Origin: Microbotryum violaceum
Taxonomy: Eukaryota
Assembly: GCA_001244265.2 (NCBI GenBank)
Contig: LN717261.1
Span: 1,255,591 to 1,319,590, forward strand
Direction of reading: 5' to 3'
DNA length: 64,000 bases
The notes under the pieces were generated by a model that saw only the letters and a list, made by a program, of their open reading frames with translations, was not told the origin of the DNA and ran no database searches. Positions 3,381 through 61,643 of this stretch are shown here, in pieces. Within the stretch, counting starts at the first letter, position 1; each line of letters starts with the position of its first letter. A program made the translations under genes and the position numbers.

Positions 3381-3603
3381 TGTAAGGCCCGTGCGCCTGG
3401 GCCTTAGGAAGAGGGGACGCGCGCCTGGGCACTCTTAGTCTCTCTCCAGCGACTGATACGAGTGTCCAGGTGAGCACAAGGTGGATCAGAAGGCATTGTC
3501 ATACCAGCGACTGATACGAGTGTCCAGTGTCAATTCTACATACTTTGGTCCTGTGATCCTTGTCGTCGTCGCTCAGGTGTACACTCCAACGGGGTGTATT
3601 ACA
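3381..3603 (+). repeat. Gypsy LTR (223 bp) with a 24-bp direct repeat bracketing a 58-nt GT-AG intron-like segment (3470-3527)
   Basis: TG...CA ends with TGTAA/TTACA terminal inverted repeat; same sequence as 45524-45746 and 50404-50626 on the minus strand. Confidence 0.95.
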
Positions 3604-6405
3604 GTATCCAAGGGAGCGCAAAGTTGAGTCAACCTCCGCGTTCCAGATGGTGCCCGCTTGGCGAAGTCCGTAGATGGATTTGGACAGCCTGAGGATCTTG
3701 CCAGGCATGTCGATGCCTTGTGGAACGCGCATGTAGAGAGGCTTGTCAAATTTGCCGTGGAGGTACATCTTGTTGACGTTGGCTTGATGGACATGGTAGC
3801 CGTTGGCCGCGGCGAGGGCAATGAGAGCCCAAATGGACGTGAACTTGATGACGGGGGCATAGTTCTGCTCGAAGTTGATGCCAGGTTGTTGGGCACAACC
3901 GGGGGCGACGAGACGAGCCTTGCGATCGATGATGTCCCCGTGCTGGTTGCGTTTAGTTCGGAACACCCAGCCCGACCGTAAGAGGATCTCACCCGCGGGG
4001 AGCTCACAGGAGTCAATGACTTCAAACACCTTGTATTCATTGAGAAGTGAATCGAATTCGTCGTGTGCCGGGCCACCCCACGTGTCCTGTTGTCCCAATC
4101 GGATGACATTGCCCCAATTGGCTGGATCTCGGACAATGGATAAGTTGTGCTCCGCAAAGCCGGCTTTGGTGGACGCGAAGGCACGGAGCATGCCTTGGAA
4201 GGCAGGAGTGGGTCCATCAGGTCCGCCAACAAGGTCTTCCCACGTGATGAGGGTGGGAACGAGTTGGCGGCGAGTCCGGGGGCCAGCGATGATGTTCCGA
4301 GCGTCGATTTCACCGTACTTCCCTGGATTGGGACCAACCTTGGCAACATCGCCGTACTCCCAAGTGGGCTTGACTTTGGCGAGTGGAGCTGGTTCCGGTG
4401 GTGCTGGTTCCGGAGGACGCTGCGGCAGGTGGATCGAAGAAGTGGCATTGTTGTCAAGCGAAGGCGGCTGGGTGGGTTCAACGAGCACGGGAGGTAACGG
4501 CGTTGCCGGAGCGTCGGCAGGTGGAGGACGGGGATAGAAACCCGGAACGGAAGGCGGTGTGACGCGGGCGGGAACGGCAACGAAGGGGAACTCGGTTTCG
4601 AGGAACGTCACATTCCGGCTCAAACTCACGCGCATCGAGGAGGGATCGAGAAGGCGCCAGGCTTTCGCGTGTCGATCGTAACCCACAAAGACCAGCGGAA
4701 TCCCTTTTGGGTTGAGTTTGTCCCGACAATGAGCCAGCACGGTGGCCCAGGCGCAACAACCAAATGCTCGAAGCGCTCCCACGGTTGGGGGGTGCCTGAC
4801 CAGCAACAATTTGGTACTCCTCCCTTGAGAGCTGCATGAGGCAAAAGGTTCTTGGTGTGGATGTAACACATGGCAGCCTCGTCCCAGCACGTACGTGAGA
4901 GTCCCGAGTCAATCAGTAAAGCCAGGGTGCCGTCCACAATAGATCGGTTGAGCTGCTCGGCTCAACCATTTTGCTTGGGCGTGTACGGTATGGTCAATTC
5001 GCGACGGATCCCACGAGCCACGCAAAAACCATTGAAGGCGGTAGAGACGTATTCACCCCCGTTGTCTGAGCGGACCGTTTTGACCTTGCGACCTGTCTTG
5101 TTTTCAATCTCCATAAGCCAGTCCTTAAACGTCTGAAGAACCTCGCTCTTGTGCCCAATGGGGTAGACCCAAGTTTTCCTCGAGAAGTCGTCAACGAATG
5201 TGACGAGGTACTGTTTGTGGCTGAACGACTCCTCTGGAAAGGACAAGATATCCGAGTGGACCAGTGCTAGCGGCTCCGAGGCGTGGAACGACAAAGGCGG
5301 GAACGGCAAACGATGGGCTTTGGATGCGAGGCACGCGTTGCAGGTGAAGTCTACACACTCGAGGTCACTATAGGTCCAATCCAAACCCTCCACCTGGCCA
5401 GAGGCCGCCAGTTTTTCAAGTGTCTGAACAGAGGCATGACCGTAGCGACGGTGAAGGGTAAGTAAAGGGATCCCATGGGACTTGGTGGTGACAAGCATGT
5501 GAATCACACCTGGGCTGGGAGTTCGGACCGAAGCGTTGAGCTTGTAAACGCGTGATGCGATGGCGGAGGCTGTGGCTATACGCCCTTGTTGCGTGCGGAG
5601 CTCGGCTTGTCCGCGTTCGAAGGTGATGCGGACCCCTTTGCCGTCGAAGGCTCGGACGGAGACGAGGTTTGCAGGGCTCTTGGGAGCGTAAATCACGTCA
5701 TTGAGGGTGAACTCGGTGCCAATGTCCGAGACGAGTTTGACCGAGCCGACTCCTGAGGCCTTCACCATCCCCCCAAGACCCTGCAGTATGTGCGAGGTAG
5801 GCGCTAGGGGGCCGTTGAAGAAGGAAGCATTGTTGACAACGTGGCAGGCGGACGCCGAGTCAAGCAGGAAGACTTTTGGCGCTCCGAAGCTGACGAACGT
5901 GGGGGATGAGAAGAAGGACATATCAAGATCCTTGGATGCCTCCTCGGTGGCCACGAACGCGGGGTGCCTGCAACAATGATGTGCCTTGAAGTTCCTTCAT
6001 CGCGTTCCTAAGCTCGAAGTACTTGACGCGCTTGCGCGTGTCCGGGCACTTGTCCACCCAGTGTTTGCCTTGACCACAGGCCGGACAGTTGCTCAGGGCC
6101 GGGCCTGAACAACCCCATCTACCCTTTTTGCCGGAAGCCGAGGGTTTGGTTGTGGCGACCGGCTTCGCAGCGAGAGCTGGGGTCGGGTCGTGGCGAAGCG
6201 TACGGGCAACTGTTTCCATGGACGCGAAGATCTGTTCGACACGGGGCAGTTTGTTGTCCTGGACCTTGACCACGTAGAAGGTCATCAGCCAGCTGTCGAA
6301 AACAGGAGGCAGGTCGTCGAGTGCCCGCGCCGCGATAGCCTGTTCCAGGTCGAGCTGGGCCATTTGCAAGTGGTTTACCAGCACCATGGCTCGATTCGTC
6401 CAGGC

Positions 6406-60000: not shown

Positions 60001-61643
60001 GAACCAAACGCGACAAAGCCGGGAAGATGGTTTCACTGAAGAACCGCATTGTTGCACAGGGCTGCGCACAAGGCCCAAACAGCTTCAACAACACCTTCTC
60101 ACCCACGGCTAAGTACACCTCCATCCGCACGCTCATCGCGCACTCGGCCTCGAAGGGCCACCACATCATTCAAGCCGACGTTGACAAGGCCTATCTTCAT
60201 GGTGTGCTGGAGGAGGAGATCTACATGCGGGTTCCAACTGGCATCGAAGGCTACGAAGGCAAATGCCTCCGCCTTCATCGATCGATCTACGGTCTCAAGC
60301 AGGCAGGTCGAGTGTGGAACGACACGATCAACGCCACGCTCGCGAGTCTCGGCTATCGTCGCCTCGCCTGCGACGAATGCATCTATCGTCATGAGGACGC
60401 TGGGGGTGATCACTACATTGCACTCTACGTCGACGATCTACTCTTCTTTGGGCCGGATCTCGGGGAAATCGATCGAGTCCTTGACCAACTCGACACCCTC
60501 TACGGAGTCAAACGCCTCGGCCCGGCCGAATGGGTACTCGGGGTTCAGGTCGTACGACACGACGATGGCGGGATCTCCCTTCTCCAGCGTCAATACCTCC
60601 TTGACGTCTTGGATCGCTTCAACATGTCCGACTGCAACCCCTGCAAGTCACCCATGGAAGCCAACCTACAGCTTTCGCCGGAACCCGATACAGACTCCGC
60701 CGACAATGCCATCTACCGTTCCATGATCGGCTCACTCATGTACGCTGTTGTTGCCACTCGCCCTGATCTAGCCCACTCCGTCGGATATCTGTCACGTTTC
60801 GTCGGCAAGGCTGGCGACACTCACCTCGAGGCGGCCAAGCGCGTCCTTCGTTACATCAAAGGATCGCTCGATCTTGGCATACACTACACGTGCACCAGTG
60901 CGCCTCTGCTGGGGTACGAGGGGTACTCTGACTCGGACTGGGGATCGGACATACAGACGTCGAGGTCCACTATGGGTTACTTGTTCAAACTGGCGGGTGG
61001 GGCCATCTCATGGTCATCTCGTCTCCAACCTCGCGTAGCTTGTTCATCCACGGAAGCGGAGTACCTGGGCCTCTCGCATGCAGCCAAGGAGGCTGTCTTC
61101 CTTCGCTCGCTCCTCACCGAACTCGGTCTCGATACGTCGTCCCCTTTACGTCTTCTCGGGGATAACCAGGGAGCTATAGCGCTCACCCAGAATCCGGTCT
61201 TCCACGCTCGCACCAAACATTTGCGCATGTTGGAGCATTTCGTTCGGGAGCATGTTCGGAATGGAGAGATCTCGGTCACCTACATCCCAACCCACGATAT
61301 GGTTGCCGACATTTTCACCAAGCCGCTGCCGCGAGTAGTCTTCCAGCGTCATTGTGACGCCATCGATCTGCGCCGCATTTCAGGCCAAGAGCAAGGGGGG
61401 TGTTGAGGTAGATTACTCTTGCCTTAAATCTGCCTAGCGCGCGTCTCTATTTGTATTAGCCGCGCGGTCCAATCGCGTCTTTCCTTCTTCTTCTCCACTT
61501 GATTACGAACTCATTGGCTTGCCACTGCCGCCAACTCGTTCAGGTGTGTGAAGAGCTCCTTTATTGCAATCCCACTTGATTACGAACTCATTGGCTTGCC
61601 ACTGCCGCCAACTCGTTCAGCACATCGCTGTTCGATTTCTACA
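57003..61643 (+). mobile_element. Full-length, young Ty1/Copia element, family F
   Basis: 243-bp LTRs 57003-57245 and 61401-61643 with one difference by eye; TSD TTACC; PBS GGTTACGAGCCC at 57246-57257; PPT AAGAGCAAGGGGGG. Confidence 0.97.
57296..61406 (+). CDS. Copia F Gag-Pol with two frameshifts (near 59340 and near 59655)
   Basis: [74 protein letters not shown]. Confidence 0.95.

Follow-up and report, generated by a model that had tools for sequence, protein, structure and literature searches.

The stretch analysed here (the window, i.e., 64,000 nucleotides of Microbotryum violaceum contig LN717261.1, positions 1,255,591 to 1,319,590) is a transposon-rich part of a fungal genome with a guanine-plus-cytosine (GC) content of ~55%, and the subject of this text is a repeated block found within the long terminal repeats (LTRs) of its retrotransposons. 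Pfam matches delineate a full Gypsy/chromovirus element on the minus strand (45524-50626; its 1489-amino-acid polyprotein frame occupies 45758-50227) and a second, truncated copy (752-3603) with reverse transcriptase (RT), RNase H, integrase and chromodomain matches within 698-3346. Copia elements were likewise recognised through Pfam at ~3500-7599 (family B, minus strand), 35817-39980 (D type) and 57003-61643 (family F). The stretch also holds a host gene with a PEMT domain (at 19589-20014), named CHO2 in an earlier note on the same DNA.

Layout of the repeated block

In six LTR families (A to F; Table 1), a block X of 24-61 nucleotides (nt) stands twice, with a unique spacer S of 9-37 nt in between. 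The two copies are termed X1 and X2, the module is read on the sense strand of the element, and the repeat edges were set by extending the identity between the copies. The earlier note had drawn attention to these modules, and its positions, donor hexamers and segment lengths all proved correct on re-reading of the sequence.

Table 1. LTRs and their modules, in positions of the window; "segment" denotes S plus X2
Family	Feature	Position	Strand	X1	S, X2 or segment	Remarks
A (Gypsy)	3′ LTR of truncated copy	3381-3603	+	3446-3469	S 3470-3503, X2 3504-3527; segment 3470-3527	
A	5′ LTR of full Gypsy 45524-50626	50404-50626	-	50561-50538	segment 50537-50480	
A	3′ LTR of full Gypsy	45524-45746	-	45681-45658	segment 45657-45600	
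A relative	solo LTR, ~86% like A	53811-53975	+			one X, no spacer
B (Copia)	5′ LTR	7375-7599	-	7527-7467	segment 7466-7384	primer-binding site 7374-7364; Copia domains in 3499-5996
C	LTR start not found	22149-22253	-	22253-22220	segment 22219-22149	adjoins LINE-like element
D (Copia)	5′ LTR, three X	34300-34665	+	34478-34532	segments 34533-34601, 34602-34665	
D	LTR, two X	35338-35718	-	35461-35407	segment 35406-35338	no primer-binding site after
D	single-X LTR	31681-31996	+			
D	single-X LTR (5′ LTR)	33182-32951	-			primer-binding-site-like 11-mer after, 32950-32940
D	single-X LTR	39751-39977	+			
D	single-X LTR	41206-41457	+			
D	single-X LTR	44800-44488	-			
E	solo LTR	~42055-42370	-	42179-42124	segment 42123-42055	X2 is the LTR end; flank starts C
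E	LTR, 5′-truncated	~43566-43777	+	43653-43708	segment 43709-43777	flank starts C
F (Copia)	5′ LTR of 57003-61643	57003-57245	+	57097-57145	segment 57146-57222	primer-binding site 57246-57256
F	3′ LTR	61401-61643	+	61495-61543	segment 61544-61620	
	TTGCAAT-bearing spacers	7450, 22191, 57166/61564				compare 34540, 43715

The X1/S boundary reads YAG/GTNNGY (the slash marking the boundary) on the sense strand of all six families, each of which has G at position +5 and a pyrimidine at position +6, and this donor-grade motif is confined to the sense strand in every family. In A, C and F, the repeat edge coincides with AG/GT; it overshoots the AG by 3 nt in B and by 2 nt in D. When both strands of the 64-kb window were counted, the motif occurred 32 times (2.5e-4 per position), and 12 of these 32 occurrences were X1/S boundaries. 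The short-range direct repeats listed in the window (17 rows) comprised the six X-S-X classes and three controls, i.e., an 83-nt repeat in the unique 3′ (U3) region of D LTRs, a U3 repeat of E and a 100-nt repeat at 12899-13102, with YAG/GTNNGY in none of the three. Chance is thereby excluded as the source of the boundary motif, even if the families represent only three independent lineages. The layout, the donor-grade motif and its restriction to the sense strand are thus established; the structural pattern is real and non-random, and apparently undescribed so far.

The donor hexamers and the segments (S plus X2) that follow from these boundaries are GTGAGC and 58 nt in A, GTTAGT and 83 nt in B, GTCAGT and 71 nt in C, GTACGC and 69/64 nt in D, GTATGT with a period of 69 in E, and GTGTGT and 77 nt in F. 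Their range of 58-83 nt is intron-like, the one host intron with contig support measuring 53 nt (see below), and the boundary motif matches the 5′ splice-site consensus of GT-AG (U2-type) spliceosomal introns.

The 20 nt preceding X1 consist of pyrimidines for 65-90%, and X begins with CA or CCA directly after this tract. In fungal promoters, the transcription start site is expected at a CA after a pyrimidine tract, and the X lengths fall within the typical range of R (repeat) regions. In 9 of the 10 modules scored, the GC fraction of S (0.31-0.47) was below that of X (0.34-0.58). Mismatches between X1 and X2 amounted to 0/24 in A, 1/61 in B, 2/34 in C, 0-1/55 in D and 0/49 in F, and to 3/56 and 6/56 in the two E copies. 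The X blocks of B (61 nt) and F (49 nt) contain a single AG each, at the end, while A, C, D and E carry a branch-like CTRAY at a distance of 13-23 nt from the 3′ end. A terminal YAG, the candidate acceptor, was seen in five families (A, B, C, D and F). Measured against the layout claimed previously, the pyrimidine-rich tract and the YAG/GT boundary hold in all families, but the second AG is missing from both E copies; the statement that X usually carries CTRAY applies to A, C, D and E but not to B and F, and that of identical or nearly identical X copies (0-2 mismatches) to all families but E.

What stands behind X2 bears no likeness to S except for 2-3 nt in B and D. TTGCAAT recurs in the spacers of three families (B, C and F) near their 3′ end, a few bases before X2 (expected ~0.014 times in 88 nt, given 20 occurrences in the window), and in C and F it is part of the palindrome ATTGCAAT; the D and E spacers show TTGAAAT at the corresponding place. 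A scan for the polyadenylation (poly(A)) hexamer AATAAA found it in one D spacer only, which is too weak to place the RNA 3′ end. No spacer sequence was found elsewhere in the window, each being confined to its own LTR family. This confinement within the window, together with repeats of 24-61 nt, speaks against an introner (i.e., a transposon-derived intron), for which numerous almost identical copies in host genes and short target duplications would be expected, and an origin of the spacer as a transfer RNA (tRNA)-primer copy, an LTR-LTR junction or a poly(A) remnant was dropped on reading the sequences.

Kinship of the families and number of blocks

Paired LTRs and Pfam domains were found for A and F, in F together with a target-site duplication and a primer-binding site, while B and D each present a 5′ LTR, a primer-binding site and Copia domains. 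E is represented by solo or truncated LTRs only. For C, none of these combinations was found: its neighbourhood contains no Copia protein and there is no primer-binding site beside it, and its tie to D and E consists of a short motif before X and the same architecture, and nothing else. Of the earlier assignment to one Gypsy and five Copia families, Pfam thus upholds A as Gypsy and B, D and F as Copia, but C is unproven as a Copia LTR. In C, D and E, X2 forms the very end of the LTR and S starts with GGT, like the Copia primer-binding site; at the D 5′ LTR, the presumed acceptor G (base 34665) coincides with the start of the primer-binding site (34665-34675). B and F have their LTR termini, a U3 block and the spacer motif in common. 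In the full Gypsy element, a T run (50403-50394, minus strand) directly follows the 5′ LTR, with no recognisable tRNA or self-priming primer-binding site, and a self-priming check of this start site found no complement to X in the T run.

The F element is flanked by a 5-bp target-site duplication (56998-57002 and 61644-61648). Since its two LTRs differ at 1/243 positions (within the spacer) and contigs of two public runs (run X1 and run X6, labels unrelated to the block names) read across the empty site with loose ends at 57002, F is a recent, polymorphic insertion.

Among the D LTRs, the number of X blocks is one, two or three. X copies show 0-1/47 differences within an LTR and 3-4/47 between the two multi-X LTRs, the spacers of which are homologous (13/14 positions). 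The X copies evidently evolve in concert, and this concerted evolution is, like the variation in unit number, established. The nearest relatives of each multi-X D LTR are single-X LTRs, at 2 differences. Because a spacer cannot be reinvented, this kinship indicates that a unit has been lost precisely, and more than once. The E copies hold the same two X variants in an order that is reversed between the copies, which would be the outcome expected of a jump between the X copies of two templates.

The 83-nt U3 repeat with its GACTTAGA-type motif occurs in one or two copies in D LTRs (31732-31871, 35525-35706, 41206-41332 and 44612-44756), and a motif related to the GACTTAGA type is repeated three times in E LTRs. 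The two-X LTR at 35338-35718 and the single-X LTR at 39751-39977 are ~96% alike and flank one Copia coding region in opposite orientation, which points to the 5′ end of the element having undergone inversion or nested rearrangement.

Run contigs, relatives and neighbouring elements

Thirteen public runs were found, none of them registered as RNA, and contigs of four runs were placed on the region 45760-61390. The joints in such contigs show presence and not absence, and since the F repeat (49 nt) exceeds the assembler word (31 nt), the spliced form and the X2 junction look alike. Among the 15 of 16 joints listed for this region, none lies at an LTR module, where contigs can again show presence only. 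One contig each in run X1 and run X6 leads from upstream of block X1 of F through X to the 11 letters after X2. They may stem from another isolate in which F exists as a single-X DNA copy, or reflect an assembly path, and are a lead only. One contig each in run X2 and run X4 skips a host intron at 54649-54701 (53 nt, starting with GTAAGT and ending with CAG), the only intron in the window with transcript (contig) support; because a 53-nt GT..AG host intron is skipped, these two runs contain complementary DNA (cDNA). Beyond the window, a Copia RT query found no match in viral contigs, in which a primer-binding-site pattern yielded 116 loci, none of them Copia-like.

An inverted segmental duplication (41747-44486 versus 54399-51688) shows ~92-95% identity. 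Four solo LTRs landed in one or other duplicate after the duplication, i.e., two E LTRs (42063-42370 and 43570-43781), the A relative at 53811-53975 and a short Gypsy-like LTR at 52416-52566, and 5-bp duplications accompany two of the four. That of the A relative was judged against the paralogous stretch 42484-42488, and run contigs without this solo LTR are seen at joint 53805>53976 and its neighbours. The short Gypsy-like LTR family (11752-11907 and 52416-52566) has no X-S-X repeat.

A degraded Copia element at ~27600-31850 (minus strand) retains RT, integrase and SH3-like domains (Pfam), and no LTR pair for it was found in the window. Two unrelated LINE-like elements were also recognised, one at 22312-27300 with endonuclease and RT domains and one at 61580-64000 with an RT domain, and F appears to have inserted into or beside the latter. 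The 100-nt tandem repeat at 12899-13102 consists of about two copies with 90% identity and lies outside the recognised elements. Finally, 13955-14416 (minus strand) has a weak match, below the Pfam cut-off, to the CxC1 cysteine cluster of KDZ transposases, which hints at another DNA transposon.

Proposed rebuilding of a leader intron by strand transfer, and its alternatives

Because of the donor motif, its strand restriction, the intron-like lengths and the otherwise AG-free X of B and F, we regard it as probable that the donor-grade boundaries are genuine splice signals. A plain leader intron would be insufficient, since the whole presumed first exon is repeated exactly. We therefore rank first, at a probability of roughly 0.36, a modified form of the cycle proposed in the earlier note, in which a short spliceosomal intron would be built into the transcribed part of the LTR. 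X1 would be the first exon, bounded by the transcription start and the donor, and the intron would comprise S and X2, with the last AG of X2 as acceptor. Splicing would then remove one repeat unit and leave a normal single-X leader with an intact primer-binding site. X would also be the place of the first jump of minus-strand strong-stop DNA, and the landing place would set the unit number: strong-stop DNA copied from 5′-spliced RNA would end in the complement of X, and its landing on X2 of an unspliced 3′ end would rebuild X-S-X, whereas landing on X1 would give a single-X LTR, and a misaligned landing of unspliced strong-stop DNA three X copies. A repeat of exon 1 at the intron end would be the minimal layout by which a 5′-spliced RNA could restore its intron through R homology.

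For such a cycle, the 3′ copy has to escape splicing. The earlier note attributed this to an RNA ending in or near X2. Splicing of the 3′ copy in A, B and F would leave only a very short last exon. The note's proposal had to be changed for C, D and E, where the acceptor G would lie outside the LTR and be supplied at the 5′ LTR by the primer-binding site; because of this outside G, the RNA end would not be the deciding factor there. The start of X at CA after a pyrimidine tract and its R-like length are consistent with the cycle, as is the homogenisation of X within an LTR alongside divergence between LTRs. One-, two- and three-X forms would likewise be expected if strong-stop DNA can land on either X. 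The mechanism is coherent, and we infer all of it from the sequence: that splicing occurs, that transcription starts where X1 begins, that the RNA ends within X2 or farther on, and that spliced RNA serves as template.

Several observations weigh against this cycle. The families, taken to be mostly unrelated in the earlier note, are not six independent cases: with one architecture for C, D and E, and common LTR termini and spacer motif in B and F, they are best counted as about three architectural groups. The acceptor AG is no independent evidence, since X2, as a copy of an exon end in keeping with the donor consensus, would carry it in any case; the 3′ end of E is preceded, at 12-17 nt, by three AG dinucleotides and lacks the terminal AG in 2/2 copies, and a scan of all modules found no CTRAY in the B and F blocks. 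The earlier description also passed over the single-X LTRs (the solo A relative and five of the seven D copies, versus two multi-X D LTRs) and the triple-X state of the LTR at 34300. Three of the single-X D LTRs are nearly identical in X (0-1/47), and elements without the module thus seem to multiply, which would make the intron dispensable. The two unlike X copies of E would mean that X2 is not overwritten in each cycle, and slippage or unequal recombination can also give concerted evolution and changes in unit number without splicing. Lastly, the primer-binding-site pattern yielded 119 loci in metagenome contigs, of which two (L041 and L046) were Copia-like, and neither has X-S-X.

Some of these points fit better with a real intron that is inherited only via unspliced genomic RNA, as in retroviruses, in which case spliced templates would yield single-X progeny and the X repeat would be a relic without a role in maintenance, originating for example from an aberrant first jump from spliced RNA onto the extreme 3′ end of another RNA whose terminus lay within an older intron. 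The donor statistics are the same under this explanation and under the cycle, the frequent single-X LTRs (5/7 in D, and the solo A relative) are apparently successful, their position as nearest kin of multi-X LTRs would reflect frequent loss, and the two unlike X copies could simply have been kept in E. A relic should decay, yet X1 and X2 remain identical or almost so in families whose X blocks no longer align to each other, and the D copies are homogenised; moreover, the three-X LTR needs a landing on X2, and hence X2 at the RNA 3′ end. On balance, we consider inheritance through unspliced RNA alone the nearest competitor of the cycle, conceivable but rather unlikely. A donor that is real but joined to an acceptor beyond the LTR (within the leader or farther downstream), giving a subgenomic or translation-only mRNA (messenger RNA) to which X2 is irrelevant, would agree with donor quality being the sole independent evidence of splicing, with the lack of CTRAY in the X blocks of B and F, and with retroviruses that carry donors in R. 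It leaves the exact X repeat, the AG-free stretch ending in YAG of B and F, and the precise losses of one unit unexplained, and we judge it quite improbable.

Splicing might also play no part, the repeat in R and the unique 5′ (U5) region owing its origin and its reshuffling to strand transfer out of register or to slippage during replication. The motif would then have another purpose, for instance the binding of U1 snRNP (small nuclear ribonucleoprotein) to silence a nearby 5′-LTR poly(A) signal, or belong to a regulatory element in the spacer. Tandem repeats whose copy number varies, among them the 83-nt D repeat, do occur elsewhere in LTRs of the window, and X units themselves vary from one to three; TTGCAAT (B, C and F) or TTGAAAT (D and E) could be a protein-binding or 3′-end signal, and one D spacer contains AATAAA. 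Slippage, however, yields head-to-tail units without a unique spacer, and explains neither a nine-position donor-grade motif placed exactly at the boundary on the sense strand of 6/6 families nor the intron-like lengths and AG-free X of B and F, which makes an origin without splicing improbable in our estimation. Least credible of all is an intron born by plain tandem duplication of an AGGT-containing segment, or a chance match. Splicing would indeed restore the unduplicated sequence, as the duplication model predicts, but that model leads to X-S-X-S, whereas S is single-copy here and what follows X2 resembles it in 2-3 nt at most (B and D); chance is at odds with the 12 of 32 motif occurrences that fall on boundaries.

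Parts of the favoured cycle have counterparts in known systems. In the HTLV-1/BLV group and in foamy viruses, major splice donors are located inside R, so that exon 1 is the 5′ part of R and the donor, lying within the LTR, is present at both RNA ends; in these viruses, however, the acceptor is far outside the LTR, unspliced RNA is the genome, exon 1 is unrepeated and nothing is rebuilt. One model of intron origin invokes tandem duplication of an AGGT-containing segment, the new introns being flanked by short direct repeats. There too, direct repeats bracket the intron and splicing removes one repeat period, but the model has two full units, whereas here S occurs once and what is repeated is the presumed first exon in its entirety. 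Variable tandem repeats such as the 83-nt D repeat resemble the module in lying within the LTR, in varying in copy number and in being probably generated during reverse transcription; they differ in being head-to-tail U3 units with no unique spacer and no splice motif. For Ty1, a lariat model is disputed. The lariat intermediate proposed in Ty1 cDNA synthesis (PMC1266399) connects the chemistry of RNA branching or splicing with the minus-strand transfer that an LTR element undergoes, but concerns a genome-length branch and not a short intron, and nothing in the window requires it. In split-intron retroviral vectors (Ismail et al. 2000, cited after the review PMC3182074), the 3′ LTR receives the donor while the acceptor follows the packaging signal, and reverse transcription creates a functional proviral intron by copying LTR sequence from end to end. 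These vectors were engineered to strip the packaging signal from all transcripts, and involve no exon-1 repeat and no repeated cycle. Canonical introns wholly within LTRs have been described for LTR-contained transcripts of maize and called the first evidence of LTR introns by the authors (preprint 10.64898/2026.05.08.723830). Those introns average ~1.3 kb, the transcripts are non-coding and LTR-confined, and neither a flanking exon repeat nor an inheritance mechanism is described for them. A literature search, which covered texts and not their supplementary files, did not find the X-S-X layout described in LTRs. That elements from no fewer than two LTR-retrotransposon superfamilies in this fungus preserve a leader intron that promotes expression through reverse transcription, by means of an exon-1 copy at the intron end and as a natural, self-perpetuating counterpart of engineered split-intron vectors, is a proposition that we hold only tentatively.

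Reverse transcription of spliced RNA normally erases introns. On the other hand, the earlier note's statement that several basidiomycetes need introns for mRNA accumulation agrees with a published account in which intronless genes of Cryptococcus give little mRNA and Schizophyllum work is also cited (PMC3744415). Even without the cycle, short canonical introns, as predicted here, are apparently undescribed in fungal LTRs. If the cycle is true, LTR annotation would have to distinguish single-X from double-X variants, RNA-seq junctions between direct repeats would no longer be template-switch artefacts by default, and a design idea for intron-bearing retroviral or retrotransposon vectors would follow. 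It would also give R homology a further role in first strand transfer, provide a reason why the LTRs of unrelated families converge on one odd repeat, and offer retroelements an escape from the dilemma between intron loss and mRNA accumulation.

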